DNA of 32,000 bases from Acholeplasma laidlawii PG-8A (GTDB taxonomy: Bacteria > Bacillota_I > Bacilli_A > Acholeplasmatales > Acholeplasmataceae), in contig NC_010163.1 in NCBI RefSeq assembly GCF_000018785.1, forward strand, positions 870,001-902,000. The letters run 5' to 3'. Positions 18,387-27,929 of the stretch are shown piece after piece; within the stretch, counting starts at the first letter, position 1; every line of letters begins with the position of its first letter. A program made the position numbers and the translations under genes. Under the pieces are notes generated by a model. That model had not been told where the DNA came from. It was given only the letters and a program-made list of their open reading frames with translations, and made no database searches.

Positions 18387-18431
18387 GTTTATTATTCCTT
18401 TTCATCATCTTAGTTATTATAACATGCATGA

Positions 18432-18517
18432 CAAAATAAAAATAGAGTTTCAAGTTTCCCAAATACTTTTAAATGCGCTAGTATTAAAAGTAGATAAGAA
18501 AATTAGAACTCTATTTT
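18432..18517 (-). terminator. Long nested hairpin plus T-tract, a probable terminator insulating the peptide transcript from the NUDIX operon
   Basis: An 11-bp outer inverted repeat AAAATAGAGTT (18439-18449) / AACTCTATTTT (18507-18517) encloses a 9-bp inner repeat TACTTTTAA (18464-18472) / TTAAAAGTA (18484-18492). On the minus strand it is followed by TATTTTG. Confidence 0.4.
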
Positions 18518-18677
18518 AAGAGTGATTTCTGTAGGGAGAGTACAGAATATCTTGTTTGTAATTTATGCTGGAGAATGCTAAATTACAAGAAGTAAAAAGA
18601 GGTTGTTTTAATAATTTTATTTTTTTCAATCAAAAAAGGATTTCAAAAATAAATTTAAACACGAATATGATGTATAA

Positions 18678-18851
18678 TTAAGGGTGCACGACTCCAGCAA
18701 TTGGAGCAAGATCAGTATTACCAAAATCTTCAAACCCTAGTTTTGAGCTTTGAGCTCTCTCAGGATGATCATTAACAACAGATGCAGACATATTTGAAAC
18801 AAATACTACTGCCACTAAGAATAAAACGATTACTAATAATAATTTTTTCAT
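18678..18851 (-). CDS. Small secreted propeptide, a candidate quorum-sensing pheromone precursor (not in the ORF track)
   Basis: Translated by hand: MKKLLLVIVLFLVAVVFVSNMSASVVNDHPERAQSSKLGFEDFGNTDLAPIAGVVHP (57 aa). It has a Sec-type signal peptide (MKK, hydrophobic core, MSA-S), no Cys, a hydrophilic middle and a hydrophobic C-terminus. RBS GAGGTGAT lies 5 nt upstream of the ATG. It is divergent from an Rgg/RNPP-type regulator. Confidence 0.7.
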   Translation of the reverse strand: MKKLLLVIVLFLVAVVFVSNMSASVVNDHPERAQSSKLGFEDFGNTDLAPIAGVVHP

Positions 18852-18871
18852 TTAAATCACCTCATGTCTAT

Positions 18872-18899
18872 ATTCTACTAAATAACCTTATATTGTGAC
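18872..18899 (-). promoter_or_regulatory. Candidate promoter of the propeptide gene
   Basis: On the minus strand: GTCACA (18899-18894), a 16-nt spacer, then TAGAAT (18877-18872). The -35 element directly abuts the 16-bp palindrome. Confidence 0.35.
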
Positions 18900-18915
18900 A
18901 CGACATATATGTCGT
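18900..18915. promoter_or_regulatory. Perfect 16-bp palindrome, a candidate operator for the adjacent regulator
   Basis: ACGACATATATGTCGT is its own reverse complement. It lies in the 85-nt divergent intergenic region, adjacent to the -35 of the peptide promoter and 22 nt upstream of the regulator's likely TTG start. Confidence 0.5.
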
Positions 18916-18936
18916 ATAGTGAAAGGAGTAAAAAAA

Positions 18937-19881
18937 TTGTTCAATCACTCAAAAGAATTAGCTCTTTTTCTCGAACAAATGCGTTTTTCCAGAGGCATTT
19001 CGCAAGAAGATTTTACGGATGGTATCATTTCAAATAGACAATATCAACGTTACATAAACGGAAGTTCAGCAATGCCCTATCATTTATTAGATGCTTTTGC
19101 TGAGCGATTAAATACCAAAAAAGAAATATTATTGTTGGAATTTGATAACTATGCAATTAAAGAGGCAGAAATAGTTCTAGATTTTTATAACGCAATCAAT
19201 AATAACGAATTAGATAAAGCTAAATTAATCGGAGAAAATATTAGTCCTAAGTTTATCTTAGATAATTATAATCTTAAATTATATGAACATGCTAAGTCAC
19301 TCATGAATTACATGGAAAATAAAATTACAAAATCAGATTATATAATATATAACAAGAATCTCATTGATTATCCAAAAATTTTATCTCACGCAGCAATGAC
19401 TATGATTGAAACTGTAATTTTATCCAGTTTATTGCCCTATACTGATGAAGAAGAACAAAACAAAATATTTCCAAAAATCCAGTCGTTTCTATCTAATCCT
19501 AATTTGATATGGACAGGAAGTCAAATATTAACTTTTAACATGATTATATATATGATTGCAAAGTACTCTGGTGTTAAGAAAGATTTTAAAAATGTCATAC
19601 ATTTTTGTAAGATGGGTATCGCTACGAATTTAAAGGCAAGATATTTTTTAAATCTTGATTACTACTATTACTTCTTGGCATTATCTTATTACAATCTAGG
19701 TAACCAAGAGTTATTCAATTTAAATTTATATAAGTGCTATACAACACTAGAAATGATGGACAACCCAACTAAAACGTCAAAAATACTTAATTTAGTAAGA
19801 AAAGATTTCAACATGGATTTAAATCAGTTTGCAATTGAATATCAACTTAAGAAGTATAAATCAAAAGGTTTGAACATTTAG
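18937..19881 (+). CDS. Rgg/RNPP-family transcriptional regulator (XRE-type HTH plus helical-repeat peptide-binding domain)
   Basis: The N-terminal HTH is FLEQMRFSRGISQEDFTDGIISNRQYQRYINGSSAMPYHLLDAFAERLN, matching the Rgg/MutR/PlcR style. The remaining ~250 aa are helical and TPR-like (LALSYYNLGNQELFNLNLYKCY). TTG 18937 is preferred as the start (AAAGGAG 8 nt upstream) over the track's GTG 18895. Confidence 0.8.
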   Translation: MFNHSKELALFLEQMRFSRGISQEDFTDGIISNRQYQRYINGSSAMPYHLLDAFAERLNTKKEILLLEFDNYAIKEAEIVLDFYNAINNNELDKAKLIGENISPKFILDNYNLKLYEHAKSLMNYMENKITKSDYIIYNKNLIDYPKILSHAAMTMIETVILSSLLPYTDEEEQNKIFPKIQSFLSNPNLIWTGSQILTFNMIIYMIAKYSGVKKDFKNVIHFCKMGIATNLKARYFLNLDYYYYFLALSYYNLGNQELFNLNLYKCYTTLEMMDNPTKTSKILNLVRKDFNMDLNQFAIEYQLKKYKSKGLNI

Positions 19882-20510
19882 TTCAAACCTTTATTTATTA
19901 ATTTCTCTATGAAATTTTTAAGTAATACAAGTAAAACTGTAAATAATACAATGACCGGTAGCATGATACCTAAACAGAATATTAGTACACTACCAAGTGA
20001 TTGATCACCATATGTTGGATTCATAAAATTGTATGGATACCAATTGGTCCATGGACCAACCGCTAAAATAATCCCAAAATATAATATTGGCAAGATAAGT
20101 GAGACCCATACATGGCGTAGTTTGATACATTCTTGAATAAGTAGGTAGTAAAATGCTGCAAATAGTACTGGGTTGATCGTATGAACCACATGGTTTTGGA
20201 ACGACATGCCTGGCTCTGCTAGCAGTGCATGATATATGATGCCTGTCATCAATATGGCTACCAAACCAATTACAGCTAAATATTTAAACCATTTTTCCTG
20301 ATGTATGTTTAGTAAATATAAACCAACTACAACAAATACTATCATATTGGAAATATTTGTAAACATTCTTAATCTTTCTAAAACCTCTAACATAGATTCA
20401 TTTAAAAAGAATAAATCTATCATTGCATACACATTGAAGATGAAAATAATACCTGCGATTGTCTTTGTTGTTTTTTTATTATCTCTGATGGATTGGATCC
20501 AATTACTCAT
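19878..20510 (-). CDS. Hypothetical integral membrane protein (about 6 TM)
   Basis: 210-aa ORF, hydrophobic throughout. RBS AAAGGAGA lies 9 nt upstream of the ATG, with a TATAAT-like -10 further upstream. It is convergent with the regulator and overlaps its stop by 4 nt. No family was recognised. Confidence 0.6.
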   Translation of the reverse strand: MSNWIQSIRDNKKTTKTIAGIIFIFNVYAMIDLFFLNESMLEVLERLRMFTNISNMIVFVVVGLYLLNIHQEKWFKYLAVIGLVAILMTGIIYHALLAEPGMSFQNHVVHTINPVLFAAFYYLLIQECIKLRHVWVSLILPILYFGIILAVGPWTNWYPYNFMNPTYGDQSLGSVLIFCLGIMLPVIVLFTVLLVLLKNFIEKLINKGLN

Positions 20511-20555: not shown

Positions 20556-22099
20556 TTATTTCAATCTAATTGACTTTCTTCTTTTAATAATGAGTATGGA
20601 TGAACCAACAATTAATACTATCAACGTTAGTGTTACACGGATTATAATCCATATATTATGTATATTGGTAGAGTTTATATCTGTTTGAATTGGTATGGTT
20701 TCATTGACTCTAACTTGTGTTTGAATTTGAATCCATTCAGTTCCAGTATTAGCACTTAATGTAACAACATATACACCTGGTTTAGTCTCATTCCCCTCAT
20801 AATCATTTTGAGTGATTTCAATTTCTGTGTAATTAATCGTTAATAGATTCTTGATTAATCCAAGTAATTCATTTGCGTCATGTATATTGCTTGCATCTAA
20901 GTTAATTGCAGGTATTTTAATAAAAAATACTGGTGGGGTATTGTCTAATACCTCAATAAATACTTCTTTAGTTGCTTCATTACCAAATTGATCTTTTGCT
21001 CCTATAATTACTGTAAACTGTCCAGTTTCATGTTTTTTAAAATCACTTGATTTGATATATACTTCAATGAAATCCTTATCTATTTCATCAATTGCTGACA
21101 TACTTTCTAGAATCATTTCTAAATCAAATTGATCTTCAATATCAATGATATATGTACTTCACCAGTAATAATAGGTGCAACATCATCAATTACATAAATA
21201 TGTTGTCTAACAGTGACAGCATTACCATTGTAATCATCCACCATGATATCAACATAGTATTGTCCAACAATATGTTCATTACCTGTATAATTTTCATCAT
21301 CAATTGATATTTCTAAGTTCTCTGTATAGTTATCTGTTGCCTCTACGATGTCAATAAGAGTTCCTACATCAATTTTGCCGGCATAACTAATCCTAATATC
21401 TTCTAAAGGTTGGACAACAGGTGGTTTTGTGTCTTGGACCCACACATTGTAAGTATATGTTGTTTTATTATTAGATAGATCTGTTGCTTCTATTGTCACT
21501 TTATACAGACCTGGTTTATGTTTATTCGGGGTGTAATTATCATTTATTATAACGATACTATCCGTAATGTTTCCATTTTGATTGTCCCATGCTCCAAACA
21601 ACTCATTTAATTCTAGAATATCTAGTGGATACTCTACATCAACTTTTAATGTGATAGTAGACTGAACTCTAGAGAATTCTCTTCCTTTTACAAAGTACAT
21701 ATGAAAATTACCTAAATCTTCTAGTAATGTCGTATCCTCTTGACTAGACAATTTTAAGATGCCATCTTTATTATAATGAGTGCTATCTAATAAAATTGAT
21801 GTTCTTCCAACATAACTGTATATGATATTACCCGTATCTGCATCAGATACTACAAATGTTTCATATAGTGAATCTATTTTATATATATTTGGACCCATAC
21901 GACTCATCACATCATCATTAAATAAAATGTCATCAAATGCTGCTATATAGACACGGTCATGCGTCTCTATAAGTTCCATTTCATCCAGACCTTCTAGCGG
22001 TTTTAAACTCACTGGAAGTGCATGTACATTCGGTATCAGTGATACCGTCAAACAAAGTATACTTATCCATATAACTATCATTAAAAGCTTTTGTTTCAT
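20556..22099 (-). pseudogene. Surface protein with repeated Ig-like (DUF5011/HYR-type) modules, split by a 1-nt frameshift into ORFs 21119-22099 and 20556-21116
   Basis: The upstream ORF has a signal peptide (MKQKLLMIVIWISILCLTVSLIPNVHA) and repeat endings ...NVWVQDTKPPVV and ...IYVIDDVAPIITG. The downstream frame is open back to 21158 and reads STYIIDIEDQFDLEMILESMSAIDEID..., which continues the repeat pattern exactly. The downstream ORF ends in a TM anchor plus KRRKSIRLK. Confidence 0.7.
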
Positions 22100-23583: not shown

Positions 23584-23610
23584 AAAAAACACTTACCATG
23601 GTAAGTGTTT
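23584..23610 (-). terminator. Intrinsic terminator ending the 29805-23629 operon
   Basis: 11-bp stem AAACACTTACC / GGTAAGTGTTT, part of the 20-bp palindrome ACACTTACCATGGTAAGTGT. A T-run follows on the minus strand. Confidence 0.8.
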
Positions 23611-23875: not shown

Positions 23876-24919
23876 TCAAGCTAAAATATCTTTAATTATT
23901 TTTCCAATTACGAAACTATGGTTTCTATCCTTTATTCTTTGGAACCATAATAGTAATTGTTTTAAACTCGGATCTTGAATTAATTTAATTAATTGATCTA
24001 AATCTTGCATAAATAAAGGGTGATCCATATCATTTAAATTATTAATTAAACGTTTAGCTTGTTTACTTGTTTTAATTGTTTTATATAGTTTTTCTATTAA
24101 TGGGGGCATTGTTAAAACAGGTATACGAATCTTTTTACTATTGATATCCAAATTCATTTTATAAATCGCTAATATTTGCTGTTTGGCAGCATAATCAATG
24201 ATTTCCTGATACTTATCATCCTTCCAGATAAAAATCTCTTTAAGGAGTTTTAATCGATATAAAAAGCGGTGGTTCGAACCCTTAGATAAGTTGTTTTCAC
24301 GTAAGAATTTCCCCTCTATTAATTCTAAATCCTGTAGATTATAAACACCATTGAGTGATTGCTCAAATAAGGATACTAAAAGTCCAGTGGTTTCAGTCTT
24401 ATGTGGTGTATTTTGAAGATATCTTTCTAAGTCTATTAATACATTGTTTTTTTCTAGTTCGTAAGCATTCAAAACACTATCAAATGATACTGTTTGAATG
24501 CTTCGATTGATTTTCTTATCTGTAATAATATAGGTTATATAAGAAAGTTTATCTTTTGTAATTTCATCTTCAATAATGACAGAAAATCCAAATGAACCAT
24601 CTTCATAGTTTCTATTTGTTGGATGTCCTACAATATCATTACGTAAATATTTTAAATGTCTTAAGTTTCTATTTTGGTTGATGTTAACGTGGTATTTATA
24701 TTTCGTTGCTGTAAAAGAGAGTTGATATAACGCATCAATGGCTACAAATAAGCCTTGAAGTAACCCAAAAACGTCAAGTAAAATATCTGCTTTACTGGAT
24801 GCATCTCTAACTTTAAAATCTTCTATCATAAGATCCACATACTTTAATGCGGCTACACTACTTTCAGCTCTAATTTTTGCATCAAACGCTAAGTTTTCAA
24901 TTGCTTTTTCAATTCTCAT
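23876..24919 (-). CDS. Hypothetical 347-aa helical protein with an RNxxxxH (HEPN-like) motif
   Basis: It overlaps the 3' end of the 1006-aa gene by 11 nt. After roughly three predicted helices comes LKYLRNDIVGHPTNR (R93...H99, nt 24643-24623). This fits the HEPN Rx4-6H motif with Asn after the Arg. The rest is helical and was not recognised. Confidence 0.6.
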   Translation of the reverse strand: MRIEKAIENLAFDAKIRAESSVAALKYVDLMIEDFKVRDASSKADILLDVFGLLQGLFVAIDALYQLSFTATKYKYHVNINQNRNLRHLKYLRNDIVGHPTNRNYEDGSFGFSVIIEDEITKDKLSYITYIITDKKINRSIQTVSFDSVLNAYELEKNNVLIDLERYLQNTPHKTETTGLLVSLFEQSLNGVYNLQDLELIEGKFLRENNLSKGSNHRFLYRLKLLKEIFIWKDDKYQEIIDYAAKQQILAIYKMNLDINSKKIRIPVLTMPPLIEKLYKTIKTSKQAKRLINNLNDMDHPLFMQDLDQLIKLIQDPSLKQLLLWFQRIKDRNHSFVIGKIIKDILA

Positions 24920-27900
24920 TTGAACTATTTCCTTTGATTTTTATAAATAGCCTATCTGCAGTAATTGGTTTATACATATCACCTTGAATGTATTTGATGC
25001 CTAAACTATGAAGTACTTCTTTGTGTTCAGGTGACTTTACATCTCTAATGATAACTGCCATGTGATGATTTAGGAACAATTGGTGCATACTTTGAATATA
25101 TTGGTTCCATTTATCGTCCGTAGATTTAAAGTCCAGATGAAGTGCATTAAATGGATAGGAAAGGGCAGTTTCCACAGATGTTGTATCCAGTCCAATACCC
25201 GTATTGGCAAGTTCTGATATTTGATTTAAGTGCTGATTGATTTTTATATTATCACCCTTGACTTTAAATCGAATAAATTCAAAGGGTATACTATATTGAT
25301 GAAACAACCCAAAGATATAAGGATTAAAGTCTACACTCGTAAATGTTTCTTTAGAAATTGGAATGGTAATTTTAATGAGCTTAGTTGTCTCTTTTTCGAG
25401 TGTATGTAAAAACTCACAGACCATCTTAATATGATGGTGTTCTAACGCTTCTAAACGATTACGTTTTTTAGCAATTGCGTGTAGGTATTTACTATCTACA
25501 GCAATATTTTCTAAGATAAGATCAGATTCATATTGCCAAATAACATTTCTATCTAAATCGATTATTTGCTCAAAAGCAAGTGATAGTTGATTGGTTTCAA
25601 TCGCTTGATTTAAGTAGTTAATGACTTGTTGTTCAAAGACTTCATTTTCATAGATAGAATGCTCATAGAATATATAGGGTTCATCACTTGCTTTTCTTCT
25701 TAAATAATCTAGTGATAATTCTAAATATCTAAATATCTTACTTGGTAGTTTTTCTTCTGTAACAACAGGATATCTAATCACAGCTATTTTCGGTTCAAAT
25801 TGTTCGTAGCTTATGACTACAGATTCCGTGTCATTTAAGTATTTAATATATGCTTTTAATAATCTTGTCACACTTCGTATATCATTTACAGGTACATATA
25901 CAAACAATTGGTTTGTACCATATCGGTAAACTGTACCATCTTCAAAGAACTTTTGACTACGTTGACCAAACTCTTTAAAGAATTTTAATGCAATATCACT
26001 ACCATAGATAGGTAAAATAGATTCATTAAATGATATGAGTAAAAATGAACCTTTATCTTTAATGTACTTTTCAAAGTTATTATGTAGCGCATTTAAATTT
26101 AAAAGCGATGTTTCAAAGTCCACTGTAGCTTCTTCAATGAGTTTCATACGTTCATCATAAATATGTGTAATATCATCAAAGATTGAAATTACATGAATTT
26201 CATCTTGAGTAGCGATTGAAACAAGTCTTTCTTTAATTTGTTTATCTAAATAAACGTAGGTGACTACATCCATTAAACCTGCTTTTTCAAATAATCTTTG
26301 AACTGAATGTTCATAAGCTTTAATTTCATGAACACCTAGATTTCTTAAAAACAGCTCAAATGGTAAGTGACTATCAACATTGAGTAATTTTTGACTTGCG
26401 ATATTATAAGTTGATTGATGATTCGTCATGATACGTAGGTTCATTAAGTTTGAGTCTAGGATATGTCTTAAAAACGTATTTTCAGTACGAATATTACCTA
26501 TTTTCTCTTCATCCTTTAAACTTCCATAGATGATGGTTGAAATACCTTTAAATAGGTCAAAAAAGGTTCCTGGATCTTGTATTTCATCTTTTAGATATAC
26601 CATGAAGGCACCTAAATCATAAAGGGCAAAACTATAAATATAGCCAACACTTTCATCATATGGTTTACCAGTTAATATATTTTTGGAATCCATAAATGAT
26701 TTTGGTGTACCAAAACGCTCTTGACCATCTTTTAAGACATTATGAATGATGGTGTCATAATAACTTTGAGGTATCAGTTGCTTATCGTAGAGTCTTTCTT
26801 TTTTATAATGATAGAGCATATCATCTTTACTGGTAAAGACGATAAAGTCTGTTGCATCTACTACTTCAGATACACGCATAAAAAAGAGTCTTAAGTATTC
26901 TCTATAGTGTTTGTTATCATGGATTTGATGAGCATACCCAAAGAGCTCAATTAAGGCATCCATGTGATAGATATTTTCCTTAACTGCTGAAACTTTAGGA
27001 GCTATACTTACTTGATGATCCGTGACCTTAATGCCTGAATCTTTCTTTTCTTCAATAACAGATTCATTTTTCTTTTGTTTCTTTAATTCTTTTTGAAGAT
27101 TTTTTAACTTCTTGGCATAATTATCATAAAGAAATTTGTTTTTAATTTCCTCATAAAAATTCATGAAAAGTTCATAGGATTTTAATCTAAATTCAGGTGA
27201 TTCTAACTCTATTTTCTCACTAAAATCGCCATCTAGAATTGCTAGTCTATGTGAATCCTTTTCATGTACATAAACTTCTAAAAGCGTCATAAATGCAGAC
27301 ATTTCATGTCTTTTATCTTGACGATATTGATTTGCGATTAATTTAGCTTCACTATACTGATTTAATTGTAGTAGTGTTTTTAAATATAGTGGTATATACG
27401 TTTGTTCATAATCTAATCTTTTGAGTTCAGCCATCAAAGTAATGGCTTTATTTGGTTCATTTTGATTTAAGTAATTCACTAAAAGATCTTTTAATAATGA
27501 TAGTTTTATGTCATTAGGTAATGTATCTTGTAGTAATCTTTCGATATCTTCAGTATAATTTTGATGGGTTATCTTTTTAAATTCTAATAAATTTAAATCA
27601 GCTAAATATCTTTTATTTACCGGTAGTACTTCTTTACGATCTTGAATATAGGCATATGCAATATCATATTTTTCTAAGTTCATAGCAGATAAATAAATCA
27701 GTTCATAAAGTACTTCTAATTCAGGATTTTGATGATGTTGAATCAACTTCTCATGATAAGCTATACCTTCATTTAATACGATTGGATATGCTTTTAGAGC
27801 ATAATAGGTTTTCATTAAATGGATAAAAACTGTTTGGTGTTCCAAAACAGTTAATGTCTTATGCTCTATGAAATTTAATATTTCAGCAACGGATTCTTGA

Positions 27901-27929
27901 CTTGGCTGAAGGTTTAATATCTCTTTCAC
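24909..27929 (-). CDS. Large signalling-type protein: TPR-like N-terminus, coiled coil, GAF-like, PAS-like, degenerate GGDEF, degenerate EAL
   Basis: 1006 aa. The GGDEF position reads RYGTNQLF (residues 669-676, nt 25925-25902). The EAL position reads QYESDLIL (ESD at nt 25529-25521). DDFGTG is replaced by LDTTSV and EGVE by RDVK, while the terminal QG(D/Y) is retained (IQGDMYKPI). The N-terminal ~290 aa are helical repeats followed by a Lys-rich coiled coil. Confidence 0.7.
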   Translation of the reverse strand: MKEILNLQPSQESVAEILNFIEHKTLTVLEHQTVFIHLMKTYYALKAYPIVLNEGIAYHEKLIQHHQNPELEVLYELIYLSAMNLEKYDIAYAYIQDRKEVLPVNKRYLADLNLLEFKKITHQNYTEDIERLLQDTLPNDIKLSLLKDLLVNYLNQNEPNKAITLMAELKRLDYEQTYIPLYLKTLLQLNQYSEAKLIANQYRQDKRHEMSAFMTLLEVYVHEKDSHRLAILDGDFSEKIELESPEFRLKSYELFMNFYEEIKNKFLYDNYAKKLKNLQKELKKQKKNESVIEEKKDSGIKVTDHQVSIAPKVSAVKENIYHMDALIELFGYAHQIHDNKHYREYLRLFFMRVSEVVDATDFIVFTSKDDMLYHYKKERLYDKQLIPQSYYDTIIHNVLKDGQERFGTPKSFMDSKNILTGKPYDESVGYIYSFALYDLGAFMVYLKDEIQDPGTFFDLFKGISTIIYGSLKDEEKIGNIRTENTFLRHILDSNLMNLRIMTNHQSTYNIASQKLLNVDSHLPFELFLRNLGVHEIKAYEHSVQRLFEKAGLMDVVTYVYLDKQIKERLVSIATQDEIHVISIFDDITHIYDERMKLIEEATVDFETSLLNLNALHNNFEKYIKDKGSFLLISFNESILPIYGSDIALKFFKEFGQRSQKFFEDGTVYRYGTNQLFVYVPVNDIRSVTRLLKAYIKYLNDTESVVISYEQFEPKIAVIRYPVVTEEKLPSKIFRYLELSLDYLRRKASDEPYIFYEHSIYENEVFEQQVINYLNQAIETNQLSLAFEQIIDLDRNVIWQYESDLILENIAVDSKYLHAIAKKRNRLEALEHHHIKMVCEFLHTLEKETTKLIKITIPISKETFTSVDFNPYIFGLFHQYSIPFEFIRFKVKGDNIKINQHLNQISELANTGIGLDTTSVETALSYPFNALHLDFKSTDDKWNQYIQSMHQLFLNHHMAVIIRDVKSPEHKEVLHSLGIKYIQGDMYKPITADRLFIKIKGNSSNEN

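Follow-up and report, generated by a model that had tools for sequence, protein, structure and literature searches.

A candidate RRNPP-type peptide signaling cassette in Acholeplasma laidlawii PG-8A

The locus

We analyzed a stretch of 32,000 nucleotides from Acholeplasma laidlawii PG-8A (contig NC_010163.1, positions 870,001 to 902,000, forward strand), which we call the window. Our subject is a small cassette within it: a gene for a peptide of 57 amino acids (aa), a divergently oriented gene for a regulator with a helix-turn-helix (HTH) domain, and a 16-bp palindrome between the two (Table 1). An initial annotation, made from the letters of the window, had proposed that these elements form a peptide-pheromone system. 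All three are present in the sequence: the 57-aa open reading frame (ORF) with its Shine-Dalgarno sequence, the ORF of the regulator, and the perfect palindrome. The initial annotation described the 57-aa ORF as unlisted, which is true of the list of ORFs that it worked from but not of GenBank, where the ORF is annotated as a hypothetical protein (ABX81470.1). The ABC-F, NUDIX, and Pr6Pr proteins encoded on its flanks likewise match records from A. laidlawii.

We compared the cassette with seven orthologous loci that were found via homologs of the regulator (in A. granularum, A. equirhinis, and A. hippikon, at a locus that matches A. oculi, and in metagenomic relatives) and with seven further loci from a metagenome scan and one genome match. 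The species share a gene order: rpmG, an ABC-F gene, a gene for a protein of 157–160 aa, a NUDIX gene, the peptide gene, the regulator gene, and a gene for a Pr6Pr membrane protein. After Pr6Pr, there is usually a surface protein of about 513 aa and then an S51 peptidase. The surroundings of the cassette had been described as an accessory-looking block, but the same order recurs in A. granularum, A. equirhinis, A. hippikon, and the metagenomic relatives. As judged by these comparisons, the cassette is chromosomal, core, and syntenic in Acholeplasma. We considered an origin in a mobile or accessory element and dropped it because the synteny is conserved.

Table 1. Features of the cassette and of related loci. 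Positions refer to the window unless a contig is named.
Feature	Position	Strand	Comment
Candidate pro-pheromone gene, 57 aa	18678..18851	-	ABX81470.1
Shine-Dalgarno sequence of the peptide gene, GAGGTGA	18857..18863	-	Kept in all related loci; TCACCTC on the + strand
Candidate -10 box of the peptide promoter, TAGAAT	18872..18877	-	TA[G/A/C]AAT in relatives; no good -35 box
Operator ACGACATATATGTCGT, perfect 16-bp palindrome	18900..18915		Core GACATATATGTC, ComR-box type
Regulator-proximal -10-like hexamer, TATAGT	18915..18920	+	Overlaps the right edge of the operator; poorly conserved
Shine-Dalgarno sequence of the regulator, AAAGGAG	18922-18928	+	
Regulator coding sequence	18937..19881	+	314 aa from TTG; ACL_RS04235 / ABX81471.1
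Terminator-like hairpin, 12-bp stem	19864..19892	both	Common to the regulator gene and the Pr6Pr gene, which converge
TATAAT at the peptide stop codon	18673..18678	+	T(A/G)TAAT in 13/13 loci, within 12 nt of the stop
HP1, A/U-rich hairpin, CUUUUUU loop	18616..18653	-	Just past the peptide stop; no U-tail
HP2, apical loop with CUCC	18556..18588	-	Stem differs between species, with compensatory changes
HP3, apical loop CUCUCCC	18527..18547	-	
HP4, long hairpin (AAAAUAGAGU...ACUCUAUUUU), then U-run	18433..18517	-	
Extended -10 box TGTTATAAT	18416-18424	-	Directly after the RNA terminator in most loci examined
Other perfect 16-bp palindromes	2167, 15029, 20044, 23591		AAGTAACTAGTTACTT, CATTTTATATAAAATG, TTGGTCCATGGACCAA, ACTTACCATGGTAAGT
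L136 precursor	L136 1985-2401	-	8 copies of DFEDSGIPEWIEL
L138 precursor, P0267	L138 1044-1304	+	4 copies of DFEDSGIPEWIEL; intact 86-aa ORF
Izimaplasma-type contigs	L135 3823-4945; L137 3847-4109		Two paralogous regulators; the second is peptide-paired

The peptide gene

The 57-aa ORF reads MKKLLLVIVLFLVAVVFVSNMSASVVNDHPERAQSSKLGFEDFGNTDLAPIAGVVHP. Its product starts with MKK. A hydrophobic leader is followed by a middle part that is acidic and variable and by a tail that is conserved (LGFEDFGNTDLAPIAGVVHP). In a rule-based check, the leader has two lysines, a 12-residue hydrophobic core with a mean Kyte-Doolittle value of 3.8, and a (-3,-1) site after residue 24. Every copy of the peptide starts with M(M)KK and contains a strongly hydrophobic core; in most copies, small residues form a (-3,-1) site near residues 20–30. 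The portion after the leader carries a net negative charge. The predicted layout is that of the Sec-dependent propeptides of RRNPP systems, and acholeplasmas encode a Sec system (PMC4221730).

A divergent ORF of 55–60 aa lies beside the regulator in all 13 of the loci that have enough upstream DNA. When we compared these ORFs codon by codon, the rate of nonsynonymous differences (pN) was below the rate of synonymous differences (pS) for 73 of 78 pairs, and the closest pair has a pS of 0.37 and a pN of 0.07. By these comparisons, the 57-aa ORF is clearly a real coding gene under protein-level selection. Within A. laidlawii, the peptide is identical on 80 contigs.

Conservation is concentrated in the last ~20 residues, which follow the pattern [LVI][GD]F[EKD]D, then about eight variable residues, then P[YWA]GP[VL][NH]P. 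A. laidlawii has the variant tail APIAGVVHP. The tail of the clade around A. hippikon differs (NPIG[KR]..FAG(G)F), with the unit NPIGKIEFAGGF. We also considered a bacteriocin precursor and dropped this idea because the mature part is acidic.

The operator and the promoters

The 16-mer ACGACATATATGTCGT occurs once in the window. A perfect palindrome of 16 bp is not remarkable there by itself: the window has five of them, versus 1.5 ± 1.3 in shuffled sequences, which is not significant. (The one at 23591 lies outside all ORFs of at least 100 aa and might be a site for another regulator.) The palindrome at 18900–18915 stands out because it is conserved in 15 of 15 loci, because its spacing to the -10 box is fixed, and because its core is identical to that of a known operator.

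Across the 15 orthologous loci, the operator has the form (C/T)(G/A)ACATAT(A/G)TGTCG, even where the regulators are only about 40% identical. The variation within it is not compensatory (A>G at the center, C>T in a single arm, T>C in the flank), and GACA and TGTC are constant. In 14 of the 15 loci, exactly 23 nt separate the 14-bp core CGACATATATGTCG from the -10 box of the peptide promoter, despite variation in the sequence of the spacer. The distance from the operator to the start of the regulator varies from 21 to 37 nt. If transcription of the peptide gene starts 6–7 nt past the -10 box, then the center of the dyad is at about -42.5, over the missing -35 box, which fits the position of an activator. 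This agrees with the initial annotation, which had proposed an activator box at the -35 position.

The initial annotation also considered the operator to be unrelated to the classical PlcR box (TATGNAN4TNCATA). That box is indeed absent from the intergenic sequence, but the operator does have a known counterpart: the ComR-box of Streptococcus thermophilus (TAGTGACATATATGTCTCTA) has the identical 12-bp core, GACATATATGTC. The crystal structure of ComR with DNA shows that the conserved GACA is read by two residues of helix 3, R35 and R39 (PMC5131891). In ComR-type promoters, a spacer of fixed length separates a dyad from a -10 box (PMC6703854).

The prediction of this operator is not new. Fisunov et al. 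(2016, Front Microbiol 7:1977) aligned A. laidlawii, A. oculi, and A. granularum and proposed the same 16-mer as the binding site of ACL_RS04235, which they listed with "unknown function." In the accessible part of that report, the treatment of this regulator mentions no peptide gene, receptor fold, identity to the ComR-box, or signaling. Our interpretation of the site is new.

Two other promoter-like sequences lie nearby. The -10-like hexamer next to the regulator is degenerate in several species (CATCTT, CATGTT). On the + strand, the TATAAT at the stop codon of the peptide gene has the extended form TGnTATAAT in five of 13 loci. We infer that it is a candidate promoter, whose transcript would cross the peptide ORF in antisense orientation and continue in the direction of the operator and the regulator; this would recall the convergent arrangement of prgQ and prgX.

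The regulator

The initial annotation gave the regulator 315–328 aa. An ORF of 328 aa exists if it is read from a GTG (18895..19881, + strand), but the orthologs' starts and the Shine-Dalgarno sequence AAAGGAG support a start at the TTG at 18937, which is almost certainly the true one and gives 314 aa. The GTG start is very likely wrong because the operator and the Shine-Dalgarno sequence would fall inside the coding sequence. The 314-aa sequence matches the A. laidlawii records RED20557.1 and SQH57068.1, and ABX81471.1 from PG-8A is the same regulator annotated from an internal methionine (300 aa). The orthologs have 299–327 aa. Public annotations disagree about the start of the regulator (300, 313, 314, 327, or 328 aa). 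The protein records P0194, P0195, P0201, P0198, and P0202 include HTH-only forms of 61–81 aa that end in ...NYAIK, as well as separate downstream fragments.

The regulator has an N-terminal HTH domain (approximately residues 1–61), a long linker helix (residues 62–88), and a helical-repeat body that extends to about residue 309. R34 and R38 are invariant in the Acholeplasma regulators. They lie in the third helix of the HTH domain, within the motif ISNRQYQRY (predicted helix 33–41).

We built an AlphaFold2 model of the regulator from 31 homologs (predicted local distance difference test, or pLDDT, of 90.2; predicted template modeling score, or pTM, of 0.79). The model is entirely helical, with five helices in the HTH domain, the long linker helix, and about eleven more helices. 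When we compared the model to the PDB with Foldseek, the top 50 matches were all RRNPP receptors (PlcR, ComR, PrgX, or Rgg), with full-length alignments (about 300 columns) and a probability of 1.00. The best single match is PlcR (3u3w, E = 1.6e-6); others include ComR (5jub), PrgX (2axu, E = 1.7e-5), Rgg2/3, and Rgg144. The ComR structures 5jub, 5juf, and 6hu8 are among the best matches, with template modeling (TM) scores of up to 0.60. The modeled fold is that of an RRNPP receptor: an N-terminal HTH domain and a helical-repeat domain that resembles tetratricopeptide repeats (TPRs) and is a candidate for binding a peptide. Together with the conservation of the small ORF (13 of 13 loci) and the purifying selection on it, the conserved operator with its fixed geometry, and the tandem-unit precursors described below, these matches support the earlier proposal of a propeptide gene divergent from a regulator of the RNPP/Rgg type.

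Distant relatives and tandem-unit precursors

A profile search of 1.84 billion representative proteins identified 658 full-length relatives of the regulator (E ≤ 1e-3). Ten that we sampled include proteins from Candidatus Izimaplasma, Candidatus Xianfuyuplasma, and metagenome-assembled genomes of Bacillota, and none of the ten has a meaningful match to an NCBIfam model.

On two independent metagenomic contigs (L136 and L138), regulators that are 34–35% identical to ours (E = 4e-61 and 1e-63) are divergent from precursors with an MKK leader and tandem units of DFEDSGIPEWIEL. The unit is 13 aa long (39-bp period, 92% matches). It aligns with the conserved Acholeplasma tail (LDFEDFGN...) and is homologous to it. 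A run of seven A's in L136 puts the leader out of frame, probably because of a homopolymer error in the assembly. As far as can be read from sequence, a leader followed by short tandem units is typical of a multi-copy processed signal, and the tandem units suggest that the DFED motif marks a unit boundary or processing site.

On Izimaplasma-type contigs, a more distant relative (302 aa, 24% identity, E = 6e-26) is divergent from a 43-aa peptide that begins with MKK, and a palindrome, GCTCATAT(A/G)TGAGC, lies between the two. Here the half-site has changed from GACA to CTCA and the residue at the position of R34 has changed from Arg to Ser. The joint change is consistent with that helix reading the operator directly. 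Not every relative has a peptide gene beside it: the first of the two regulators in L135 and L137 follows trpS and lacks a peptide partner, and a paralog in Xianfuyuplasma (L134) has no adjacent small gene.

A structured RNA downstream of the peptide gene

The ~250 nt between the stop codon of the peptide gene and the promoter of the NUDIX gene fold much better than shuffled sequences do (z = -5.8). The architecture is identical in all 13 loci: an A/U-rich hairpin (HP1), two hairpins with CUCC(C) loops (HP2 and HP3), and a long hairpin followed by a run of U's (HP4). All 26 of the CTCC motifs in the 13 loci are unpaired and lie in apical loops, and the 26 hairpins have a mean z-score of -3.7. 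CTCC is rare on the strand of the RNA (0.56 per kb). In the stems of HP2, both sides covary at 9–10 pairs. Our claim of an RNA structure rests on the folding of each locus and on covariation in the close clade and in HP2, because an alignment of the 13 twin-hairpin regions with MAFFT and RNAalifold mis-registered HP3. A covariance model from the six closest sequences found distant copies at marginal E-values, among false matches.

No Rfam family matches the RNA; the sole match in the window at the gathering threshold is a tRNA, and the E-value mode gave nothing but chance miRNA-like matches to the long hairpin. The RNA module is absent from the cassettes of L136, L138, and Izimaplasma.

HP4 is likely to be the terminator of the transcript that carries the peptide gene and the RNA. 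HP1 lacks a U-tail, which makes it plausible that transcription from the peptide promoter reads through. The RNA could be a small RNA in its own right, or it could form the 3' portion of the peptide mRNA, which would then have two functions. The CUCC(C) loops resemble anti-Shine-Dalgarno sequences and, by analogy with RNAIII and RsaE/RoxS, could bind the ribosome-binding sites of target mRNAs.

Proposed mechanism and classification

Bernard et al. (2023; PMC10075063) published a signature for RRNPP systems. The regulator, with 314 aa, falls within the signature's range for receptors (250–500 aa). The peptide, with 57 aa, falls within the range for propeptides (10–100 aa), and the two genes are divergent with 85 bp between their start codons (range, -60 to 400 bp). 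The cassette thus agrees with the signature in lengths, adjacency, and fold, but the regulator lacks a sequence-level match to TPRs. On computational grounds, we consider the cassette to be probably an RRNPP-type peptide signaling system of a previously undescribed subfamily, with a design closest to that of ComR/Rgg. We assign it to a new subfamily because of the lack of TPRs at the sequence level and because the regulator does not belong by sequence to ComR, Rgg, or PlcR. Its DNA-reading end looks like that of ComR, and its precursor looks like PapR or Phr.

In the mechanism that we propose, the 57-aa precursor would be exported through Sec and its leader would be cut near residue 24, as expected from sequence rules. 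The acidic pro-region would be trimmed outside of the cell to give a peptide from the tail that starts at DFED or DFKD, as suggested by the relatives with four and eight units. The peptide would then re-enter the cell, probably via an oligopeptide permease, and would bind the helical-repeat domain of the regulator, as its fold suggests. (A Pfam scan of the 10 largest ORFs in the window found no opp-type gene; oppA and oppD are reported in A. oculi [PMC4221730].) A dimer of the regulator would bind GACA-N4-TGTC via the helix with Arg34 and Arg38, by analogy with R35 and R39 of ComR. From about -42.5, it would activate the peptide promoter, whose -10 box is not accompanied by a -35 box, and this would lead to autoinduction. 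Because the operator overlaps the proximal promoter of the regulator, binding should also limit the synthesis of the regulator. More speculatively, the induced transcript might run into the conserved RNA with CUCC(C) loops, which could be an output arm.

A more ambitious reading joins several of these ideas: this would be the first peptide quorum sensing in the Mollicutes lineage, built as a compact bistable switch. The ComR-like receptor would autoinduce a pro-pheromone transcript whose two anti-Shine-Dalgarno-like CUCC(C) hairpins provide an RNAIII-like output, and the convergent promoter at the stop codon of the peptide gene would transcribe the regulator antisense through that gene, with interference as in prgQ/prgX. 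We doubt that this joint reading will hold as a whole.

Our search of the literature found no paper that ties RRNPP signaling to Acholeplasma. Three large surveys of RRNPP systems, along with the supplements of the largest one, do not mention Acholeplasma, Mollicutes, or Tenericutes. The largest survey scanned Firmicutes alone and relied on hidden Markov models (HMMs) for TPRs (PMC10075063). HMM-based surveys probably missed this receptor because it has no sequence-level match to TPRs.

If the cassette is a signaling system, then bacteria without a cell wall and with reduced genomes have kept peptide communication, and A. laidlawii would be a tractable model with a very small regulon. The receptor family would comprise at least 658 sequence clusters, which are unnamed or have generic names, and would reach Izimaplasma, Xianfuyuplasma, and uncultured Bacillota. 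The ComR type of DNA reading (GACA-N4-TGTC, with arginines at i and i+4) would either long predate the ComR clade of streptococci or extend well beyond it. Two further leads would be the precursors with tandem units and the structured RNA attached to the cassette.

Alternative explanations

Several results weigh against a signaling role for the cassette. At the sequence level, Pfam has just a sub-threshold match to the regulator (HTH_3), and neither Pfam nor NCBIfam has a TPR family that matches it at E ≤ 0.1 or an Rgg-type model that matches it. A search of PDB sequences gave a single TPR-like match, to a Sel1-repeat chain (E = 0.51), and phmmer and hmmsearch against PDB sequences found no ComR or Rgg chain at E ≤ 10. 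As for the peptide, the hydrophobic leader could be an uncleaved membrane anchor, and the conserved part is about 20 aa, acidic, and rich in proline and glycine, unlike the short hydrophobic peptides SHP, XIP, and PapR. Furthermore, in the window and in eight related loci, we found no second copy of the operator within 5 mismatches of the 18-mer; the window and each of the eight loci have just the copy in the cassette. The suggestion in the initial annotation that a membrane protein and an adhesin nearby are members of the regulon is therefore not supported. (We also scanned 596 Gb of contigs with the 15-mer ACGACATATRTGTCG. Among the matches listed, there were chance matches from unrelated phyla and one useful locus from Acholeplasmataceae, L034, which has the same cassette. 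A 15-mer is too short for 596 Gb, so our view of the regulon covers the window and the eight loci.) Finally, the regulator is truncated in some A. laidlawii protein records: P0194, P0195, and P0201 stop at residue 75. The records that end at ...NYAIK imply a premature stop after residue 75 (codon 76, approximately 19162–19164 in the window), which, to judge from the protein records, could be a natural loss of function or a phase-variable state. If the regulator is truncated while the peptide is invariant, then the system is dispensable, or variable, in culture.

Some of these results would be expected if an RRNPP-like regulator controls a small secreted or membrane protein without sensing it. 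The regulator would have another ligand or none, and the 57-aa product might be, for instance, a surface or secreted factor. Besides the long acidic conserved region and the strains that have a truncated regulator but an identical peptide, this explanation is favored by the paralogs without an adjacent small gene (L134 and the first regulator in L135 and L137), and the binding of a peptide is predicted from the modeled fold. We nevertheless think that it is unlikely. The pairing of peptide and regulator persists from 93% to 24% identity of the regulator and across differing flanking genes, four or eight tandem 13-aa units behind a leader are hard to explain except as a multi-copy processed peptide, and all of the structural neighbors of the regulator are peptide receptors. 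The conservation of the RNA suggests another explanation, that the minus-strand unit is mainly a regulatory RNA whose CUCC(C) loops mimic anti-Shine-Dalgarno sequences, with the 57-aa ORF being secondary or incidental. The hairpins are present in 13 of 13 loci with every CTCC motif in an apical loop, the stems have compensatory changes, the region as a whole folds stably and ends in a terminator, and the hairpin past the stop codon lacks a U-tail, so that read-through is plausible. But the ORF is clearly under protein-level selection, with its leader and tail motifs kept, and the cassettes of L136, L138, and Izimaplasma pair a peptide with a regulator without this RNA, which makes the explanation quite improbable. 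Given the selection on the ORF and the RNA-less cassettes, a role for the RNA would add to peptide signaling rather than replace it. Alternatively, the palindrome might work at the RNA level, as a hairpin for processing or attenuation, in which case the adjacency of the genes would be coincidental synteny. A 6-bp stem with a 4-nt loop could form in either transcript, and, as noted above, perfect 16-bp palindromes are not rare in the window. We consider this to be very improbable: the variation is non-compensatory while GACA and TGTC are fixed, the palindrome keeps a constant spacing to the -10 box but not to the start of the regulator, the core is identical to that of the crystallographically defined ComR operator, and in Izimaplasma the half-site changes along with the residue at the R34 position.

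Other genes in the window

The Pr6Pr and adhesin genes converge on the regulator from its far side. At their stop codons, the Pr6Pr gene and the regulator gene have 4 bp in common, and the terminator-like hairpin sits at this overlap. The adhesin, an immunoglobulin-like (Ig-like) surface protein, is split into ORFs of 326 aa and 186 aa in different frames (20556-22099, - strand). The two fragments align to residues 1–316 and 340–511 of the intact protein from A. granularum, and the orthologs are single ORFs of 513–517 aa. As the initial annotation had recognized, the gene has decayed; by this comparison, it is a pseudogene or a frameshifted gene in this strain.

On the other side of the cassette, the invariant extended -10 box TGTTATAAT probably drives the NUDIX, 160-aa, and ABC-F genes. 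This makes it less likely that these genes depend on read-through from the peptide promoter. Farther away, a protein of 1006 aa (24909-27929, - strand) carries an EAL domain at its C-terminus (Pfam, E = 2.3e-12); its large N-terminal part has no assignment. It may be a cyclic-di-GMP phosphodiesterase in a Mollicute.

Comparison with known systems

The cassette has much in common with the ComR/ComS (XIP) systems of S. thermophilus and S. salivarius. The regulators have about 300 aa and share an HTH and helical-repeat fold. The two operators have the same core, GACATATATGTC, which contains an inner GACA/TGTC inverted repeat and would be read by two arginines that are four residues apart in the recognition helix (R34 and R38 here, R35 and R39 in ComR). 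The promoter consists of a dyad, a fixed spacer, and a -10 box without a -35 box, and autoinduction of the peptide gene is expected. However, the regulator has no detectable sequence homology to ComR, and no comX-like target is known here. ComS has no Sec leader, whereas in the precursor here a Sec-type leader precedes a pro-region of about 30 aa. Also, the peptide gene is downstream of the regulator in ComRS but is divergent from it here.

In the PlcR/PapR system of the Bacillus cereus group, the PapR precursor is exported by Sec and the active peptide is derived from its C-terminus. The likeness to our cassette lies in this layout of the precursor, which we predict here too, and in the fold, as PlcR is the best single Foldseek match (3u3w). 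There is no sequence similarity, and papR lies downstream of plcR on the same strand, while the regulator and peptide genes are divergent here.

The RNA can be compared with RNAIII of the agr system and with RsaE/RoxS, whose C-rich loops bind the ribosome-binding sites of target mRNAs. The RNA here also has C-rich apical loops (CUCC, CUCCC) that are complementary to Shine-Dalgarno sequences. Like RNAIII, it is a structured RNA that is associated with a small ORF, which it follows here, in a transcript that is probably induced by quorum sensing. It differs from RsaE/RoxS in that it matches no Rfam family.

PrgX/PrgQ of the plasmid pCF10 from Enterococcus faecalis resembles the cassette in the fold of the regulator (2axu) and in that the regulator and a small peptide gene share a control region. 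In pCF10, there are overlapping convergent transcripts (Qs and Anti-Q), and the putative promoter at the + strand TATAAT would give a similar overlap here. The cassette differs in being chromosomal and core instead of plasmid-borne and in that its peptide has a Sec-type leader. The reference propeptides SHP and PrgQ lack a Sec tag and are exported by PptAB (PMC10075063).

Rap/Phr systems differ from the cassette in the receptor, which here is a DNA-binding HTH regulator and not a Rap phosphatase, and the repeat motif (DFED...) is unrelated. The precursors are alike in having a leader, a pro-region, and a C-terminal signal. The relatives with four or eight tandem units extend this likeness, and intragenic duplication in propeptide genes has been described for RRNPP systems (PMC10075063).

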